DNA from: Candidatus Levyibacteriota bacterium | GTDB taxonomy: Bacteria > Patescibacteriota > Microgenomatia > Levybacterales > UBA12049 | Assembly (NCBI GenBank): GCA_016186625.1 | Contig: JACPLG010000008.1 | Location: 80,689-144,688 of the forward strand | Reading direction: 5' to 3' | DNA: 64,000 nucleotides | Shown: positions 345 through 64,000 of the stretch, piece after piece | Position numbering within the stretch: position 1 is the first letter of the stretch | Layout: every line of letters starts with the position of its first letter | The notes under the pieces: model-generated | Told to the model about the DNA's origin: nothing | The model's input: only the letters and a program-made list of their open reading frames with translations | The model's database searches: none | Position numbers and translations under genes: made by a program

Positions 345-2411
345 TTATTTTACTCTTGCGTTAAACTTTGAGGAAATTGCACTGATTACTTGTTCTCTAA
401 TTTCTGAAACTTCTTTGCTTGTTAAATTTCTATCTTCAGCTTGATAAATAATGTGAAAAGTTCTGGCATTTTCAAACTGGTCCTTAAGCTTCACTTCTCT
501 TATCAAAAAACTCTGAAGAGATATCTCCTCAATAACATCTTGAGTTGAAACTGCCTCATCCAAAACAAAAGTAATATCCTCAAAAACTGCCGGAAATTTT
601 GCCAGAGGTTTGTAAACTTTTTTATTGGTTGCGTTTTTAAGCAAGATTTCAAAGTTAATTTCAAAATCTATGAGATTGCTATTTAGAATTTCAATATATC
701 CGACATTTTCGTTTTCAATTGAGATTTCTGCTCCTCCTTCTACTCTATTTTTAACTTTGTAATTTTTTATCTCCAAATCGTCAAATAGGGCTTCGATTAG
801 TCCTTTTACTTCAAAGAAAGAGACTCCCGTTTTTTTAATAAGTCCGGCAAGAGTTAACTTTTCTTTAGGCAGGTTTTGCCCTGAGCCGATTCGGTCTGAG
901 CGGGTTCGACGTCCTGAGCTCACCGTCGAAGGACTCACGGTCGAATGACTTGTCGAACGGGCTTTTTGACTTTTATGATAGGTATTGGCAAGTTCAAAGA
1001 TTTTGATAATTTCTTTTGCCTTATTGTTCTCAGCTACCTCGAGAAGGCTTGGAACAAGAGTATTTCGAAGATATACCATATCCGAAGTTAATGGATTTTT
1101 AAGCTTAATGGCATTATTAATTGGACCGTCAAATAAATCCTCAGAAACCAGGGAATATGTGTAAACCTCAGTGTATCCCCAGTATTTAAGTGCGCTTTTA
1201 ATTCTATCTTCCCAGTAGAAATTGTTGGCATATGGAATCGTTTTGTCACTTAAGAAAGATGGGATAATACTTGGTATCCTATGGTACCCATAAATTCTTG
1301 CTATTTCTTCAATGATGTCTTCTTCTATTTTTATATCATTAATCCGTTCTGATGGAACCTCAACCTTAAAAAAACCTAAATGAGCGCTGACTTTAAAACC
1401 AAGTTTTTGAAGAATTTCAGTTGCGATATTTGGATTTATCCCAACTCCAATTATCTTGTTAATCTTCTCAAGAGAAACCTTTACAGTTTGAGTTTTTGGT
1501 TTGTTAGGATAAACATCCAGGATTTTTGAGACAACTTTTCCCTGTGCAATTTGCTGATAAAGTTCAATTCCTCTTTTTAGCGCAAGTTCCATAAACTCCG
1601 GATCCACTCCCTTTTCGTTAACAATGGCCGCTTCAGTTCTAATTCCAAGACTCATTGAAGTTTGTCTGATACGATCGGGATTATTATTATCAAGAAAAAA
1701 TAGTATTCTTTTGGTTTTTTCATTAACAACAGAATTTGCTGTTCCCATAATTCCCAAAAGGTCGATTATTTCCCCTTCCCCATTGTCAGCAACTATATCT
1801 CCACCCAGTAATCGATACTCTTTCCCATCCAAAGTTGTAATAATTTCTCCTTTTTTTGACCCTCTTATTATCATCTCTTTAGTGTTTAATAAATCGTAGT
1901 CAAACACATGAGCGGGGTGGCCAATTTCGCGCATTACATAATTTGTGACATCAACCAGATTATTAAGACTTCTTATTCCGGAAAGTTCCAGACGATTGGC
2001 AATTTCTTTTGGGCTTTTGCCAATATTAACTTCCAAGACCACAGCCATAATTCTATTTACCAGTTTTGGGTCATTTTTGATTTCAATCGGGAAAGAAATA
2101 TCTCCTTCCGCAACTTTTGGTGTTTTTGGCGGAATGTATTTTGCCGCAATTCCATTCCCTGAAAGTGAAGCCGTTGCCTCTTTTGCAATTCCTGCAACAG
2201 ACATTAAATCCGGCCTGTTGGTTGTAACCTCGATATCATAAGTGTAATCATCTCCAGCTTTCCCGCCTGCAACGCCTGCGCTAGCATAGCGGGCAGGTTC
2301 TGTCTGCCCTACCGAAACAGAAGTCAGGGAAAGTTGCCGGGCAATTTCTGAGGCACTTGCTTTTGTTTCCAAAAATTCTCTTAACCAAGAGTCAACGATT
2401 TTTATTTGCAT
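345..2411 (-). CDS. pheT: Phenylalanine--tRNA ligase beta subunit
   Basis: 688 aa; N-terminal MQIKIVDSWLREFLE..., B3/B4 and B5-like regions, C-terminal FDX-ACB-like domain. Directly downstream of pheS on the same strand. ATG start at 2409-2411. Confidence 0.9.
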   Translation of the reverse strand: MQIKIVDSWLREFLETKASASEIARQLSLTSVSVGQTEPARYASAGVAGGKAGDDYTYDIEVTTNRPDLMSVAGIAKEATASLSGNGIAAKYIPPKTPKVAEGDISFPIEIKNDPKLVNRIMAVVLEVNIGKSPKEIANRLELSGIRSLNNLVDVTNYVMREIGHPAHVFDYDLLNTKEMIIRGSKKGEIITTLDGKEYRLLGGDIVADNGEGEIIDLLGIMGTANSVVNEKTKRILFFLDNNNPDRIRQTSMSLGIRTEAAIVNEKGVDPEFMELALKRGIELYQQIAQGKVVSKILDVYPNKPKTQTVKVSLEKINKIIGVGINPNIATEILQKLGFKVSAHLGFFKVEVPSERINDIKIEEDIIEEIARIYGYHRIPSIIPSFLSDKTIPYANNFYWEDRIKSALKYWGYTEVYTYSLVSEDLFDGPINNAIKLKNPLTSDMVYLRNTLVPSLLEVAENNKAKEIIKIFELANTYHKSQKARSTSHSTVSPSTVSSGRRTRSDRIGSGQNLPKEKLTLAGLIKKTGVSFFEVKGLIEALFDDLEIKNYKVKNRVEGGAEISIENENVGYIEILNSNLIDFEINFEILLKNATNKKVYKPLAKFPAVFEDITFVLDEAVSTQDVIEEISLQSFLIREVKLKDQFENARTFHIIYQAEDRNLTSKEVSEIREQVISAISSKFNARVK
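895..962. repeat. MITE-like TCGAA/CCTGAG-rich repeat inserted in-frame in pheT
   Basis: gttcgacgtcctgagctcaccgtcgaaggactcacggtcgaatgacttgtcgaacggg shares GTCGAATGACTTGTCGAA with the element at 32565-32596. Translated as the low-complexity peptide ARSTSHSTVSPSTVSSGRRTRSDRIGSGQ in a PheT linker. Confidence 0.45.
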
Positions 2412-13277: not shown

Positions 13278-13317
13278 GCTTTAAGTTTAGCAGATTTTTA
13301 TCAGGCAATTCATTCGG

Positions 13318-13362
13318 TTTACACCCCGGGTGTGGATTTAAGTTTACACCCTAGGATTTGTG
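13318..13362. repeat. REP-2 copy (TTTACACCCCGGGTGTGGATTTAAGTTTACACCCTAGGA)
   Basis: Two-part repeat identical in structure to copies at 52316 and 52824. Confidence 0.65.
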
Positions 13363-13434: not shown

Positions 13435-13490
13435 ATTCAAAGTCGGGCAGGTGTCAATGCAACGCTCTAACCAACTGAGCTACAACTCTA
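13435..13490 (-). pseudogene. tRNA 5'-half fragment (acceptor + D-arm + anticodon-loop TTGACAC, no T-arm) abutting tRNA-Val
   Basis: AGAGTTGTAGCTCAGTTGGTTAGAGCGTTGCATTGACAC then no pairing partner and no GTTCGA box. Confidence 0.4.
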
Positions 13491-13543
13491 TAAAATAAAC
13501 GAGCCCGAAGGCCCGTTTATTTTAACAAAATAAGTTCATTGGA

Positions 13544-13840
13544 TCAAATACAGTTAGTTCGAGGTCTTGGCATGACTTTGGCCATATTCGGTGCCTCTTC
13601 CGGAGGCGGAACATGCATTATTCCTCCATCCACTGCAAATGCGTGACCAACACGCATTGTTATACTCTCTCCGTCAGGAGTTCTTCCTGTGATAAATTCT
13701 TGTGGTGTACCACCATCTATTAATAAACCCGCTCTTCTATGTTCTGTCCATGGGTTTGCTTGTGTTACGCCTGTCATTTTATCCGCTGCATCAGCCGCTG
13801 CCCTTGATTCTCCTGTTTCAAATCCTGTCTCCGTTACCAT
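13544..13840 (-). CDS. Hypothetical small protein P2
   Basis: 98 aa; strong SD GGTAGGGGGTGAT 8 nt upstream of ATG; immediately follows P3 stop; GC-richer. Confidence 0.4.
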   Translation of the reverse strand: MVTETGFETGESRAAADAADKMTGVTQANPWTEHRRAGLLIDGGTPQEFITGRTPDGESITMRVGHAFAVDGGIMHVPPPEEAPNMAKVMPRPRTNCI

Positions 13841-16385: not shown

Positions 16386-16467
16386 CCTCCAAGGGTTTCC
16401 CCATATGGTCCTAAACCATACGCGTCTGCCAATTTCGCCACCGGCCCGCAAATGGTATTATACCTTA
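16386..16467 (-). tRNA. tRNA-Leu (anticodon TAG), class II with long variable arm
   Basis: GGGCCGGTGGCGAAATTGGCAGACGCGTATGGTTTAGGACCATATGGGGAAACCCTTGGAGGTTCAAGTCCTCTCCGGCCTA. Confidence 0.8.
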
Positions 16468-16488
16468 CCCTCCAAAGGCGGGCAAGTT

Positions 16489-19651: not shown

Positions 19652-19777
19652 TCGCCACATGGGACAAACCTCACGGTTTTTCCCAACCTGCCCGCTAATG
19701 CTGCGCATAAGCGTTGCAGGCGGGCGATTTCCCTTTAGGGACCACAAAATCAGCACTCCCAATCCAACGATTTTGTG
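19652..19777 (-). repeat. Conserved tRNA-upstream element (copy 3, with a ~37-nt hairpin insertion)
   Basis: Minus strand: CACAAAATCGTTGGATTGGGAGTGCTGATTTTGTG...CCTAAAGGGAAATCG[insertion]GTTGGGAAAAACCGTGAGGTTTGTCCCATG; matches 20942-21023 and 34643-34730. Confidence 0.5.
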
Positions 19778-20941: not shown

Positions 20942-21023
20942 GCGAAATCGTTGGATTGAGAGTGTCGATTTCGCTACCCCTAAAGGGAAATCGTTGGGAA
21001 AAACCGCGAGGTTTGTCCCATTT
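20942..21023 (+). repeat. Conserved tRNA-upstream element (copy 1): two hairpins directly 5' of tRNA-Phe
   Basis: GCGAAATCG-TTGGATTGAGAGTGT-CGATTTCGC ... GGGAAAAACCGCGAGGTTTGTCCC. Confidence 0.5.
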
Positions 21024-31979: not shown

Positions 31980-31981
31980 CC

Positions 31982-32015
31982 GGGGACTAGCTCAGTTGAA
32001 GTAGCGACTAATTTT
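31982..32015 (+). pseudogene. tRNA 5'-fragment (acceptor + D-arm only)
   Basis: GGGGACTAGCTCAGTTGAAGTAGCGACTAATTTTC then intact tRNA-Pro begins. Confidence 0.3.
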
Positions 32016-32089
32016 CGGGGTGTAGCGTAGTTGGCTAGCGCGCCTCGTTTGGGACGAGGAGGTCGTCGGTTCGAATCCGACCACCCCGA
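32016..32089 (+). tRNA. tRNA-Pro (anticodon TGG)
   Basis: CGGGGTGTAGCGTAGTTGGCTAGCGCGCCTCGTTTGGGACGAGGAGGTCGTCGGTTCGAATCCGACCACCCCGA. Confidence 0.8.
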
Positions 32090-32411: not shown

Positions 32412-32466
32412 AATTAATCCGCAATATAAATCATCTATAGCTATAAGTCAAGAAAGCAGAATCTGA

Positions 32467-32598
32467 GCGGGTGAAGGGAATCCCATTCGACTTCGCTCAG
32501 GGTAAACTTCTCATCCCTTCACGCTGGATTCCACCAGCCCACCGCGAATGGTGAGCAATTCGTCATGAGCTCATTGTCGAATGACTTGTCGAATCCAG
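32467..32598. repeat. MITE-like element at the tRNA-Gly 3' end, bounded by a partial duplicate of the tRNA 3' end (GAGCGGGTGAAGGGAATCCC)
   Basis: Intact tRNA 3' AGAGCGGGTGAAGGGAATCGAACCC at 32598-32621 and partial copy at 32467-32488; between them ATTCGAC...GTCGAATGACTTGTCGAA. Confidence 0.5.
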
Positions 32599-32669
32599 AG
32601 CGGGTGAAGGGAATCGAACCCTCGTATCCACTTTGGAAAAGTGGTGTTCTGCCATTGAACTACACCCGC
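32599..32669 (-). tRNA. tRNA-Gly (anticodon TCC)
   Basis: GCGGGTGTAGTTCAATGGCAGAACACCACTTTTCCAAAGTGGATACGAGGGTTCGATTCCCTTCACCCGCT. Confidence 0.8.
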
Positions 32670-32862
32670 GCGCGAAGCGTGGGACGAAACCAAGGGTTTC
32701 TTCCCAACGATCTTCCTTTAAGGATGCACGAGGCCGGTAAAATCATCAAGCGAGCGGCCCTGACGTGCAATATCTAGCGTTTTGCGTAATCTTAATTCTA
32801 TCAAACTTGAGTGGTTATATTCAATTATTTCACGGCGCGGAGGACGAAAGCGCGGTTGATTA

Positions 32863-34642: not shown

Positions 34643-34730
34643 CGCAAAATCGCTGGATTGGGAGTGTCGGTTTTGCGAATCAATAAAGGGAAAATCGTTG
34701 GGAAAAAACCGTTAGGTTTTGTCCCATTTA
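34643..34730 (+). repeat. Conserved tRNA-upstream element (copy 2)
   Basis: CGCAAAATCG-CTGGATTGGGAGTGT-CGGTTTTGCG ... GGGAAAAAACCGTTAGGTTTTGTCCC; stem changes relative to copy 1 are compensatory. Confidence 0.5.
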
Positions 34731-34772
34731 GGCCCTGTAGCTCAACGGATAGACCTGCCCGCTAAGCAGCAT
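34731..34772 (+). pseudogene. tRNA 5'-fragment (acceptor + D-arm + degenerate anticodon arm)
   Basis: GGCCCTGTAGCTCAACGGATAGACCTGCCCGCTAAGCAGCATG; no T-arm. Confidence 0.35.
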
Positions 34773-34845
34773 GCGCCCGTAGCTCAACGGATAGAGCAAG
34801 ACGGTTCTAACGTCAAGGTTGGGGGTTCGATTCCCTCCGGGCGTG
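34773..34845 (+). tRNA. tRNA-Arg (anticodon TCT)
   Basis: GCGCCCGTAGCTCAACGGATAGAGCAAGACGGTTCTAACGTCAAGGTTGGGGGTTCGATTCCCTCCGGGCGTG. Confidence 0.75.
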
Positions 34846-34855
34846 CAAGTATGGT

Positions 34856-34911
34856 AGGCAGGGCGAGTGCGTTCTAAGCACCAGGTTGGGGGTTCGATTC
34901 CCTGCCTGCCG
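34856..34911 (+). pseudogene. D-arm-less partial tRNA-Arg(TCT) copy
   Basis: GGCAGGG-CGAGTGCGTTCTAAGCAC-CAGGTTGGGGGTTCGATTCCCTGCCTGCC; same anticodon loop GTTCTAA as the neighbouring tRNA. Confidence 0.4.
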
Positions 34912-35072
34912 GCAGGCAGGCCTCCGGGGTCGCACTTCGGCATCAGTCCGGCAAACTCATGACAAGAGCTCAGTGCAAGCTGAGTTTGACGAAGCGACCT
35001 GAGGGATGAGAAGTTTACCCTGAGTACTTCGGTTTACTCAGCATAAACGAAGTCGAAGGGATTCCCTCCAGG
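34912..35072. repeat. MITE-like repeat with partial tRNA 3' duplicate (GATTCCCTCCAGGGTC)
   Basis: cgaagtcgaagggattccctccagggtc; CCTGAG and TCGAA motifs as in the other copies. Confidence 0.35.
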
Positions 35073-39392: not shown

Positions 39393-39467
39393 GGTGGATG
39401 TAGCTCAGTGGTAGAGCTCCTGGTTGTGGTCCAGGTGGCCGCGGGTTCGATCCCCGTCATCCACCCA
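39393..39467 (+). tRNA. tRNA-His (anticodon GTG) with G(-1)
   Basis: gGTGGATGTAGCTCAGTGGTAGAGCTCCTGGTTGTGGTCCAGGTGGCCGCGGGTTCGATCCCCGTCATCCACCCA. Confidence 0.8.
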
Positions 39468-39898
39468 TTCGACTCACTTCGTTCGCTCATGGCTGTAAGC
39501 CGGAGTCGAATGTCCTGAGTTCATCGAAGGACAAAATGTCTTTTTTCATTTACATTCTCCGTAGCTCATCCAATCAACTATATATTGGACAAACGAATAA
39601 TTTTGAAAATCGGACAAAGCAACATATTGCAAAAGATTGTAAAGCAGCGAAATTTACTAAAGATCATGAAGACTTCAAGCCCGTTTATAAAGAGGAGTAC
39701 CCTACAAGATTAGAAGCAATGAGAAGAGAAGCACAGATTAAAAAATGGTCAAGAGCAAAAAAAGAAGCGCTTATTGCAGGAAATTTGAAAGAACTTAAAA
39801 ATTTAAGCAAAAAGAAATAGTAAGTGAGATCATCGAGCCTGAGCCTGAGGTTCACTTCAGAGTCGAAGACCTGTCGAACCATCCCCGTCATCCACCCA
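39468..39898 (+). mobile_element. Minimal tRNA-integrated cassette: GIY-YIG nuclease gene bounded by a 16-bp direct repeat of the tRNA-His 3' end and ATTCGAC.../...GTCGAACC termini
   Basis: CCCCGTCATCCACCCA at 39453-39468 and again at 39883-39898; left end ATTCGACTCACTTCGTTCGCTCA, right end GAGTCGAAGACCTGTCGAACCAT. Confidence 0.55.
39536..39820 (+). CDS. GIY-YIG nuclease-domain protein (UPF0213/YhbQ-like)
   Basis: FFIYILRSSSNQLYIGQTNNFENRTKQH matches the GIY-YIG core. Confidence 0.7.
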   Translation: MSFFIYILRSSSNQLYIGQTNNFENRTKQHIAKDCKAAKFTKDHEDFKPVYKEEYPTRLEAMRREAQIKKWSRAKKEALIAGNLKELKNLSKKK

Positions 39899-48429: not shown

Positions 48430-48654
48430 TTTCGACTGAGGAAATATCGGTTCCGATACCTGATTTGTACGTAATTGTTCTAAGAACTCATCCCTTAGAT
48501 TTCACTCCCTCCAAAGGCGGGCAGGCAGGATAAACATCATGGACTTGCTTCTTTTTAGCCTCAAATCTGCTATAATCCCCTCTTATGGGAGTCGAGGATT
48601 ATTTTCCAAACATCCAATTTCCCATAGCCTAGCTTATTTGTTATACTATATTTT

Positions 48655-63295: not shown

Positions 63296-63357
63296 GTGAT
63301 AAAAAATGACCCCTCCGAGCCATTATCATTGTATCAGATTGATCCATTTTTGCAAAT

Positions 63358-63390
63358 TTGTTGAGGATTATGAGGCTATCTGATAAAATG
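63358..63390 (+). promoter_or_regulatory. Candidate promoter TTGTTG-N17-TGATAAAAT driving the tRNA-Arg locus
   Basis: ttgttgaggattatgaggctatctgataaaat; the tRNA fragment starts ~8 nt downstream. Confidence 0.4.
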
Positions 63391-63396
63391 AATGCG

Positions 63397-63438
63397 TGCA
63401 CCCGTAGCTCAATGGATAGAGCACATCGCTTCGGATCA
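63397..63438 (+). pseudogene. tRNA-Arg(TCG) 5'-fragment (acceptor + D-arm + anticodon loop CTTCGGA, no T-arm)
   Basis: GCACCCGTAGCTCAATGGATAGAGCACATCGCTTCGGATCAC; no matching 3' half downstream. Confidence 0.4.
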
Positions 63439-63478
63439 CAAATTGATTTCAAAGCACAAATAACTTATAATTTGAGCT

Positions 63479-63916
63479 ATGAAGAGATGTAGTAGGTGTA
63501 AAAAAGAAAAGTCTATTGAAGATTTTAATTTTAAAAATAGAGCTAAGCAGACTCGGCAATATCAGTGCAAAGATTGCAGCCGAATATATATAAGGTCACA
63601 TTATGAAAGAAACAAGAAGTACTATCTTTTAAAAGCAAAGCTCAGAAATGAAGCAAACAGAAAGGAAATCAAAGCATATATATGGAATTTTCTCAATAGT
63701 AATCCATGCGTAGACTGTGGGGAGAAAGATCCGATAGTTTTAGAATTCGATCACTTATCGGACAAGATAGCAGATATCTCCGCAATGTACAGAAATTATA
63801 ATTTGCAAAAAGTTAAAAGTGAAATTGAAAAGTGTCAGGTCAGATGCGCAAATTGTCATAGAAGAAAAACGGCAAATGAGCAGGGATGGAATAAAAATTT
63901 TGCCTCTGTAGCTTAA
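63479..63916 (+). CDS. HNH endonuclease with N-terminal CxxC...CxxC zinc finger
   Basis: CVDCGEKDPIVLEFDHLSDK...CQVRCANCHRRKT (HNH). The 3' end overlaps the tRNA-Arg 5' end by ~15 nt. Confidence 0.7.
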   Translation: MKRCSRCKKEKSIEDFNFKNRAKQTRQYQCKDCSRIYIRSHYERNKKYYLLKAKLRNEANRKEIKAYIWNFLNSNPCVDCGEKDPIVLEFDHLSDKIADISAMYRNYNLQKVKSEIEKCQVRCANCHRRKTANEQGWNKNFASVA

Positions 63917-63973
63917 CGGATAAAGCGCTGGTCTTCGGAACCAGTAATGCGGGTTCGATTCCTGCCAGGGGCG
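63902..63973 (+). tRNA. tRNA-Arg (anticodon TCG)
   Basis: GCCTCTGTAGCTTAACGGATAAAGCGCTGGTCTTCGGAACCAGTAATGCGGGTTCGATTCCTGCCAGGGGCG. Confidence 0.75.
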
Positions 63974-64000
63974 CAACGTATTGCTGCAAGGTAGCACGTT

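Follow-up and report, generated by a model that had tools for sequence, protein, structure and literature searches.

The stretch of DNA analysed here, hereafter the window, comprises 64,000 nucleotides (nt) of contig JACPLG010000008.1 from a Candidatus Levyibacteriota bacterium, and it contains four tRNA 5' halves without a T-arm, each upstream of an intact tRNA gene. These halves are probably the relics of resident tRNA genes, each one split by a mobile insert that carried a complete, divergent tRNA with the same anticodon. The relics match the corresponding genes of relatives (34-35/38 identical positions for tRNA-Val at site 1, 18/18 for tRNA-Pro at site 2, 23/23 for tRNA-Arg(TCT) at site 3, and 34/38 for tRNA-Arg(TCG) at site 4) better than they match the intact genes beside them; the alignments therefore show the relics to be resident, and the intact genes to be foreign and inserted whole. 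The resident genes were originally single-copy in the lineage, and the window records at least four replacements of such genes by incoming cognates, with at least two kinds of small mobile unit involved; tRNA replacement is recurrent across lineages of the Candidate Phyla Radiation (CPR). A preliminary description of the same DNA had judged the fragments too diverged from the adjacent genes to be recent local duplications, and had suspected mobile insertions in tRNA genes unlike those of classical integrases; both views are borne out.

Regarding detection, tRNA genes were called in the window with ARAGORN and Rfam, which returned 13 intact tRNAs; none of the four fragments was called by ARAGORN or by the Rfam family RF00005, even at E<=10, and a complete cloverleaf with T-arm and 3' acceptor strand was absent from all four by the same tools. 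A blastn-short comparison of the 13 tRNAs with the window found the Arg relics and the 3' repeats and was too noisy for Val and Pro, so that nhmmer profiles of tRNA halves took over the relic search (5'-half E-values refer to 1.19 Mb); the 5'-half profile picks up the fragments at sites 1, 3 and 4. All four fragments are real, on reading of the sequence and, for these three sites, by nhmmer. The related sequences compared with the window are labelled L001-L325. The window carries ordinary bacterial housekeeping genes (pheT, carB). One protein encoded in it has 100% identity with a protein from a metagenome-assembled genome of Candidatus Levybacteria, and around its AI-2E transporter gene it shares synteny with further contigs of Levybacteria and Microgenomates. 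As for spacing, an intact tRNA with the same anticodon lies 17-19 nt 3' of the relic at sites 1-3, as the fragments had been said to abut intact genes; this does not extend to site 4, where the distance to the intact tRNA-Arg(TCG) is 466 nt with a 145-aa open reading frame (ORF) in between.

At site 3 the old tRNA-Arg(TCT) gene is retained in three parts, with the following features.

34731..34753, plus strand: relic part 1, acceptor 5' strand and D-arm of the resident tRNA-Arg(TCT), up to the cut after ATAGA
34754..34862, plus strand: cassette of 109 nt in the D-loop, with left terminus CCTGCCCGCTAAGCAGCAT, an intact tRNA and right terminus CAAGTATGGTAGGCAGG
34773-34845, plus strand: the intact tRNA-Arg(TCT) in the cassette
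34863..34900, plus strand: relic part 2, D-stem 3' strand, anticodon arm and T-arm as far as TTCGATTC
34901..34920, no strand assigned: perfect palindrome of 20 nt, CCTGCCTGCCGGCAGGCAGG, in the old T-arm
34921..34932, plus strand: relic part 3, T-stem 3' strand, acceptor 3' strand and discriminator

Relic part 1, whose 23/23 match is to the tRNA-Arg(TCT) of L004, lies 19 nt 5' of the intact gene. When positions 34731-34753, 34863-34900 and 34921-34934 are joined, ARAGORN calls a tRNA-Arg(TCT) that is 73/74 identical to that of L004/L012 and 60/74 identical to the intact inner gene; the old gene holds two inserts, the 109-nt cassette in its D-loop and the 20-nt palindrome in its T-arm. The D-arm-less partial copy reported earlier beside the tRNA-Arg at 34773 is present (34863-34900 and 34921-34932), and it is the remainder of this same old gene. 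A full tRNA spanning the region, which the preliminary description would have counted against its own interpretation, does appear at site 3 once the two inserts are removed; neither insert corresponds to any known kind of intron, and the cognate tRNA found within is intact.

Regarding allele diversity, the tRNA-Arg(TCT) genes of L003-L013, L022 and the window have acceptor types GGCCCYG or GCGCCCG and anticodon-stem types ACATCG, GAGTGC or AAGACG in varied pairings. Such mixed pairings suggest recombination between alleles, and serial replacement would explain their mosaic character.

At site 1, in a tRNA-Val(GAC) gene, the features are these.

13519..13547, minus strand: promoter-like site TTGATC-17-TAAAAT with TG, upstream of the relic
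13452..13489, minus strand: relic, the resident tRNA-Val(GAC) from position 1 to 38, with its end in the anticodon loop after TTGACA
13435..13451, minus strand: cassette left terminus CCTGCCCGACTTTGAAT, 17/17 identical to the left terminus of L095
13362..13434, minus strand: incoming intact tRNA-Val(GAC), short-D-loop allele, 17 nt 3' of the relic

The relic, AGAGTTGTAGCTCAGTTGGTTAGAGCGTTGCATTGACA, comprises the acceptor, the D-arm, and the 5' strand of the anticodon stem with the loop; it was detected with the 5'-half profile at E=0.004, and its 34-35 identities are to intact tRNA-Val(GAC) alleles at the orthologous locus. The interval 13435-13490, taken earlier as a fragment throughout, holds the 38-nt relic, and a further 17 nt of it are the terminus of the insert. 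Only one promoter-like site (extended -10) occurs at site 1, and its position upstream of the relic makes it the sole candidate promoter for the incoming tRNA-Val; the motif TTTTGTTAAAAT is conserved 5' of tRNA-Val in relatives.

The population at this locus consisted of 80 metagenome contigs with the HD-domain gene that follows tRNA-Val, of which about 45 carry the tRNA-Val gene. In most of the latter it is intact and un-nested, usually as the long-D-loop allele (GGGCTCNTAGCTCAGTTGGTTAGAGCGTTGCATTGACATTGCAAAGG...); in L115 and L150 the resident gene has the short-D-loop type of the window. The nested state is seen in ten (L094, L095, L096, L118, L133, L134, L139, L140, L142/143). L095 has the same junction as site 1, the identical 17-nt left terminus and a near-identical incoming tRNA; beyond that tRNA come the right terminus AAAGTCCAGTCAGGCGGG and, already damaged in its T-arm, the old 3' part. 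Given the shared junction and terminus, site 1 is therefore this insertion, from which the right terminus and the 3' relic have since been lost; and, since L095 has both relic parts and both termini, the intact tRNA-Val is wholly foreign and not a hybrid. As for the other nests, the cassette of L094 is in the D-loop after GGTAGA, the allele types of L096 are swapped relative to the others, L118 has a 20-nt palindrome in the T-arm of the old tRNA-Val, and L139 has three nested layers; the outer (relic) copies are decayed in L095, L118 and L134. The comparison of syntenic loci that had been proposed as a check yielded, in sum, empty sites, an identical filled site (L095), decaying relics and nests of up to three layers.

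Some tRNA-like genes were also observed at this locus: L105 475-551, L106 2007-2083 and L117 161-237 have normal acceptor, D-arm and T-arm, and their anticodon arm is swapped for a plain hairpin of 6-7 bp whose loop has 3-4 nt (as in GTCCGATGAACATCGGAC and GGTCGCCTTAGGCGAC). They occur in tandem with tRNA-Val or as a relic around it, and the old copies in L096 and L133 have the same form. In the window, GGTGTAAAC occurs twice 3' of tRNA-Val (13300-13355, minus strand).

Site 2 concerns tRNA-Pro(TGG).

31981..31998, plus strand: relic, the first 18 nt of the resident tRNA-Pro(TGG), CGGGGACTAGCTCAGTTG, directly after tRNA-Leu(TAA)
31999..32015, plus strand: spacer of 17 nt between the relic and the intact tRNA-Pro
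32016..32089, plus strand: intact tRNA-Pro(TGG) of a foreign allele type, nearest to L068/L075 and not to the Levybacteria relatives

The 18/18 match is with the first bases of the syntenic tRNA-Pro in L004/L022. Site 2, where no termini can be recognised, goes back to an older event or to one of another kind, and 18 nt of the resident gene are left.

As for site 4, the insert is of another kind.

63398..63435, plus strand: relic, resident-type tRNA-Arg(TCG) 5' half through the anticodon loop CTTCGGA
63436..63478, plus strand: spacer with the motif TTGATTTCAAAG, conserved 5' of homologous HNH ORFs
63479..63916, plus strand: HNH endonuclease ORF of 145 aa, with its stop codon within the tRNA D-loop
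63902..63973, plus strand: intact tRNA-Arg(TCG), HNH-linked allele type

The relic is the best-scoring 5' half (nhmmer E=1.2e-5); it is 34/38 identical to the tRNA-Arg(TCG) of L325 and 27/38 to the linked intact gene, and this relic-type allele reads GCACCCG...CATCGCTTCGGA.... The ORF matches phrog_2255 'HNH endonuclease' in PHROGs (E=1e-35), and the catalytic motif DH...N...CxxCH is readable in its translation; Pfam, NCBIfam and PDB sequence searches gave no match for it. It has 3551 homologues of about 144 aa, and in 6/6 contexts, from several gene neighbourhoods, the last 10-15 nt of the ORF overlap the start of tRNA-Arg(TCG), with the stop codon (TAA or TAG) falling in the D-arm. The HNH-associated allele type is seen in the 5' as well as in the 3' half of the linked tRNA, so the whole tRNA gene arrived with the ORF. 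A degenerate Arg 5' half (...TTGCTTCGRA...) and TTGATTTCAAAG are found 5' of every HNH ORF examined, the window copy being the best preserved, and these remnants decay in L082-L089. The ORF is missing from L325, L021 and L028; in L325, the sole syntenic relative found for site 4, tRNA-Arg and tRNA-Lys are adjacent. With its catalytic motif, its place beside tRNA-Arg(TCG) and its variable presence among relatives, the ORF has the marks of a free-standing HNH homing endonuclease, and site 4 is a vehicle other than the CCTGCC-type cassette described below: a free-standing HNH ORF overlap-fused to tRNA-Arg(TCG). In L077 (12236-12818, a Saccharibacteria contig), an Asn-like tRNA is interrupted by a genuine group I intron (RF00028, 67 bits) that encodes a 31% homologue; the free-standing module is therefore related to intron endonucleases of the kind found in Patescibacteria tRNA genes (PMC13011429).

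Several observations accompany this site. In L001, an independent-assembly contig near-identical to the window at site 4, the continuation of the window past 64000 has a GIY-YIG ORF (575-960) between tRNA-Arg(TCG) and tRNA-Lys(CTT), and further GIY-YIG ORFs adjoin tRNAs in L003, L008, L028 and L078. A large serine recombinase gene with Resolvase and Recombinase domains abuts tRNA-Lys(CTT) in L325 (1-1330). In the window (63902-63916) and in L082-L090, an RNase P cut of the co-transcript would strip the stop codon from the HNH message; as a speculation, this loss might limit expression of the endonuclease.

Regarding the inserts themselves, the cassette at sites 1 and 3 is about 110 nt long, has no protein gene, and is bounded by GC-rich inverted termini, CCTGCCCGC ... 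GCAGGCGGG. Its layout is a terminus (CCTGCCCGC or the variant CCCGCCTGC), a leader of 5-10 nt, the tRNA, a trailer of 4-11 nt, and the complementary terminus; the termini are imperfect inverted repeats of CCYG units (CCTGCCCGC as against CCCGCCTGC). Units of this kind are short (20-109 nt) and non-coding, with the terminal inverted repeats CCTGCCCGC/GCAGGCGGG or CCTGCCTGCC/GGCAGGCAGG, and the cassette is one member of a broader family whose palindromic elements measure 20-75 nt. Five terminus-bearing units are in the window (2262-2297, 13435-13451, 19687-19724, 34754-34862 and 34901-34920), together with a lone terminus-like match at 48518-48529, and CCTGCCCG was observed 5 times against 0.73 expected. 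Many copies are present in related loci, and the tRNA-Val sites are empty in some relatives and filled in others. Two of the units in the window are empty hairpins.

19687..19724, plus strand: empty hairpin of 38 nt from the same terminus family, 36 nt 5' of tRNA-Leu(GAG)
2262..2297, minus strand: empty hairpin of 36 nt in pheT, in frame (12 codons, phase 0)

Through the pheT hairpin, PheT gains PARYASAGVAGG in its conserved N-terminal region, and a 75-nt member in L028 (6193-6267) lengthens TypA by 25 residues immediately ahead of the DTPGHADF motif; both inserts encode P-A-R...A-G-G because the CCTGCCCGC/GCAGGCGGG termini dictate it.

As for where the tRNA-bearing units sit, ten of 241 tRNAs in 2.9 Mb of fetched sequence are directly flanked by termini, and 10/10 are inside a relic of the same tRNA species and in the same orientation; none of the terminus-flanked tRNAs in this set was found in non-tRNA DNA, which argues for an insertion that is at least directed to tRNA genes. 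Insert and relic share the anticodon in every case in which the loop of the relic is preserved, and they always share the orientation. Insertion points vary (33/34, 36/37, 37/38, D-loop, T-arm). Both 5' and 3' relics are present at site 3 and in L095, L140, L094, L118, L133, L134, L021 and L028, and the nested architecture extends to L021 (Arg-TCG, split at 33/34), L028 (Pro), L066 (Val) and L078 (Lys, Saccharibacteria). The tRNA-Pro of L028 has a 41-nt hairpin in its D-loop and a tRNA cassette in its anticodon loop; in-silico removal of the inserts yields a valid tRNA there, as it does for the Arg-TCT gene of the window. In predicted folds, the inner cloverleaf would stand on a terminus-terminus stem rising from the old helices. 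No target-site duplication was found at site 3, L021, L028, L095, L134 or L139, and the target bases are usually all kept; the lack of duplication is compatible with palindrome-associated elements derived from IS200/IS605, and the left flank is only loosely conserved, mostly ending in A.

The 20-nt palindrome CCTGCCTGCCGGCAGGCAGG is invariant in L021 (9114), L022 (432), L048 (435), L080 (684) and L118, from CPR lineages, and it occurs in 35 IMG/VR stretches (L171-L205; expected by chance far below 1), many of which have 60-68% GC. Some IMG/VR copies are within tRNA genes, in the variable loop of a tRNA-Met (L195, L172) or in a D-loop (L202), and the natural variant CCTGCCTACCGGTAGGCAGG of L064 has a compensatory change that keeps the palindrome. 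A sequencing-adapter artefact was discarded on account of this variant and of precise in-gene junctions in independent projects, and a role of CCTGCC as a DNA-uptake sequence was discarded because its copies are too few. Two further lines were given up. In three data sets, terminus 8-mers are significantly enriched at distances of up to 100 nt from tRNAs, and this was dropped as proof of tRNA targeting, since it is partly a general intergenic preference; a hairpin-pattern scan of IMG/VR (>120 matches) was set aside as near chance for an 18-base variable-gap pattern in GC-rich DNA. Finally, the ORFs between two of the L028 hairpins are dinB, a hypothetical gene and typA, and no transposase is among them.

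The events may be pictured as follows. A short mobile DNA with a complete cognate tRNA would land inside the resident gene in the same orientation; because it lands within the old gene, both a 5' and a 3' relic arise. The preliminary description had imagined elements that replace the 5' region of a tRNA; mobile elements do account for the fragments, and what they insert is a whole tRNA, with the old gene split in two. The incoming tRNA would then take over decoding and would be read from the old promoter, the 5' relic and the terminus forming a leader removed by RNase P, and the relics, now presumably non-functional, would decay or be deleted. Use of the old promoter would explain why only same-orientation insertions occur; and the 5' relic, being placed between promoter and gene, would be more constrained and harder to delete than the 3' relic. 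As for the cognate match, it may reflect either homology between cargo and target during insertion or survivorship in a genome with one gene per anticodon.

A broader proposal is more tentative, and we give it a little less than even weight: the cassettes would form an undescribed class of protein-less tRNA replacement units, about 110 nt long with 9-10-nt inverted termini around one tRNA, which spread among CPR bacteria by landing in the cognate gene, persist by addiction through replacement of an essential gene, and generate, in repeated rounds, nests up to three deep and mosaic alleles. They would be the cargo branch of a widespread palindromic family, of which the invariant 20-nt palindrome ranges from CPR genomes to virus-like contigs of 65% GC, and which is also found in frame in essential protein genes. 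Literature searches returned no description of nested tRNAs in CPR or of the palindrome CCTGCCTGCCGGCAGGCAGG, and a whole tRNA nested in its predecessor is apparently an undescribed form; the principles that it combines are known ones, namely tRNA genes as targets, restoration of target function, palindromic mini-elements and homing endonucleases.

Several points speak against the replacement of resident genes by inserted cognates. The 3' relic is gone at sites 1, 2 and 4, so that a nested origin there rests on the comparison with relatives, and no CCTGCC terminus is present in the site 2 spacer (31999..32015). The terminus types vary (CCTGCCCGC, CCCGTCTGCC, ACTTGCC, TCCCGATA), so more than one family or mechanism may be at work. 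No transposase, recombinase or other enzyme was found linked to CCTGCC-type cassettes, and no autonomous copy, that is, a terminus pair 200-4000 nt apart enclosing a transposase-sized ORF, was found in the 2.9 Mb of loci. Transcription from the old promoter and the non-function of the relics are inferred. Finally, all the compared sequences are metagenome assemblies, and the Logan short-read unitigs, which confirm the flanks, break in the D-arm or in the relic anticodon loop.

An assembly artefact behind the relic-cassette structures is nevertheless unlikely, because independent projects show the same structures. Independent assemblies contain site 4 in full, and of site 1 they reproduce the flanks. 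The unitigs, however, break within tRNAs and say neither yes nor no on the relic-cassette junction of site 1.

Conventional islands and prophages that target tRNA genes are kb-sized, encode a tyrosine or serine integrase, and leave an identical 3' repeat with a 3' fragment at the far end; Williams reportedly defined, in 2002, sublocation classes for such integrative elements. The cassettes resemble them in landing in a tRNA gene, bringing a replacement so that function survives, and leaving a displaced fragment; they differ in being about 110 nt long without a protein gene, in carrying a whole divergent tRNA, and in splitting the D-loop or anticodon loop with relics on both sides. A classical integrase event that used the 5' part of the tRNA, followed by deletion of nearly the whole island so that a 5' fragment remained beside a hybrid tRNA, is very improbable, even if it would suit the 5'-only relics of sites 1, 2 and 4, the classical-looking 3' direct repeats at tRNA-Gly and tRNA-His of the window, and the large serine recombinase gene beside tRNA-Lys in L325. 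No integrase ORF is present at any of the four sites (the inserts are 17-109 nt at sites 1-3, and the only ORF at site 4 is the HNH one); L095, with the site 1 junction, keeps the right terminus and the old 3' part; the intact genes differ from the relic in their acceptor and anticodon stems, the two strands of which are co-adapted; and the fragments are 5' parts, not exact repeats of the intact gene.

The suggestion, also made earlier, that the 5' halves are kept for a function (a processing leader, a decoy for a tRNA-targeting nuclease, or a half-site for the HNH enzyme) found no support and is very improbable. The anticodon-loop remnant TTGCTTCGRA of Arg and the nearby TTGATTTCAAAG are indeed recognisable 5' of HNH ORFs in divergent genomes, and 5' relics outlast 3' relics in the window; but the other relic parts are degenerate, with decay in L095, L118, L134 and L082-L089, the length and end-point of the relic vary by site, and the position between promoter and gene accounts for retention without any function.

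Even less credible is that the interrupted genes are functional split or intron-containing tRNAs, in which RNase P and RNase Z would free the inner tRNA while the termini held the outer halves together for joining. This would agree with the perfect tRNAs obtained on removal of the inserts at site 3 and in L028, and with the predicted folds, which seat the inner cloverleaf on a terminus-terminus stem within the old helices; on the other hand, there is no 3' half at sites 1, 2 and 4, an intact tRNA with the same anticodon is always there, insert positions vary, and the outer copies decay in L095, L118 and L134. No group I core was found in the window (RF00028, E<=10; the positive control L077 gave 67 bits), and Rfam at permissive thresholds, applied to the whole window and to 63300-64000, gave no group I intron or other family that accounts for the inserts. 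We know of no bacterial enzyme for protein-mediated tRNA splicing and, unlike in archaeal systems, of no splicing endonuclease in the bacterium of the window. Archaea have split, permuted and multi-intron tRNA genes, with intron transposition in Thermoproteales (PMC4090602, PMC4390854); the inserts of the window share with them the D-arm, anticodon-loop and T-arm positions and complementary flanks able to form a helix, and differ in that the outer gene decays and the insert holds a tRNA with the same anticodon. Group I introns, some encoding HNH endonucleases, occur in Patescibacteria tRNA genes (PMC13011429), in the same phylum and likewise interrupting the anticodon loop; the inserts of the window have no catalytic core, and what comes after the insert is a complete tRNA and not a 3' exon.

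The least probable alternative, a tandem tRNA duplication followed by truncation and divergence of the upstream copy, would fit the shared anticodon and orientation of relic and intact gene and the tandem tRNA-like pairs of L105, L106 and L117, and it is contradicted by the relic being near-identical to orthologues elsewhere while the intact gene is the divergent one, by the old 3' part 3' of the intact gene (a nested, not tandem, geometry), and by the conserved inverted termini that bound the insert.

With replacement by inserted cognates as the preferred reading, two further groups of known elements invite comparison. In Allomyces mitochondria, a GIY-YIG element in atp6 reportedly came with a foreign 3' end, by which the native one was displaced (Paquin and co-workers, 1994). 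In phage T4, the free-standing homing endonuclease gene segB lies in a tRNA gene cluster (PMC2330249). Site 4 is like free-standing homing endonucleases in that the HNH ORF is tightly linked with the gene copy that it would protect or bring, the displaced resident fragment is adjacent and presence is variable; it is unlike the SegB and Allomyces cases in that a complete tRNA is linked, whose first bases encode the C-terminus and stop codon of the ORF. Sites 1-3, unlike all of these, have no endonuclease gene. As for palindromes, the Rickettsia palindromic elements insert in frame in protein genes, and inverted-repeat transposable elements of miniature size (MITEs) and the GC clusters of yeast mitochondria are comparable repeats. 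The family of the window shares with the three of them short, GC-rich, non-coding palindromes in many copies in a small AT-rich genome, the in-frame position in essential genes (pheT, typA) and the presence also in RNA genes. It is unlike them in its unrelated CCTGCCCGC/GCAGGCGGG terminus, in having no target-site duplication, and in its tRNA-passenger subclass, which sits only inside cognate tRNA genes.

If this reading is correct, the tRNA genes of genomes with one gene per anticodon are still replaced by horizontally acquired alleles, and each replacement leaves a readable fossil record of relics and nests; the model also offers an account of mosaic tRNA alleles. The cassette would represent a minimal selfish strategy, in which an essential gene is supplanted and not merely restored. 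In practical terms, relics, nested genes and in-frame pheT/typA palindromes are missed or mis-called by standard annotation tools, and short-read assemblies break at nested tRNA sites. The HNH-tRNA-Arg(TCG) fusion and the invariant 20-nt palindrome are leads toward the enzymes involved.

Fragments of the opposite kind are also present, and the systematic 5'-only pattern described earlier does not stand: the window has 3'-end repeats of tRNA-Gly(TCC) (32465-32482) and tRNA-His (39881-39897). At these two loci (tRNA-Gly(TCC) 32465-32669, minus strand; tRNA-His 39394-39897, plus strand) the last 18 and 17 nt of the tRNA, counted from the T-loop between TTCG and AT, are repeated after inserts of about 115 and 414 nt, respectively; both inserts have ATTCGAC...GTCGAA inverted ends, and the larger holds a GIY-YIG ORF (39536-39820). 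They are a second class of tRNA-targeting mini-element, one that leaves 3' fragments, and are events apart from the four sites.

Finally, some repeats near tRNA genes were recorded. The hairpin-like motif GTTGGGAAAAACCGNGAGGTTTGTCCCA occurs at 19660-19687 (minus strand), 20993-21020 (plus strand), about 34697-34730 (plus strand) and about 32672-32710 (minus strand), directly 5' of tRNA-Leu(GAG), tRNA-Phe, the start of the old tRNA-Arg(TCT) and tRNA-Gly(TCC). This motif may represent a promoter of tRNA genes, an element of their leader, or one more repeat. GCCCGCCTTTGGAGGG is found 5' of tRNA-Leu(TAG) (about 16455-16475, minus strand) and again at 48500-48529 (minus strand), next to a CCTGCCTGCC terminus. 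In L039 (3678-3941), near the end of a Falkowbacteria contig, the tRNA 5' half GCGGGATTAGTATAGTGGTAGTACAGRAGTCTCC occurs three times at a spacing of 116 nt.

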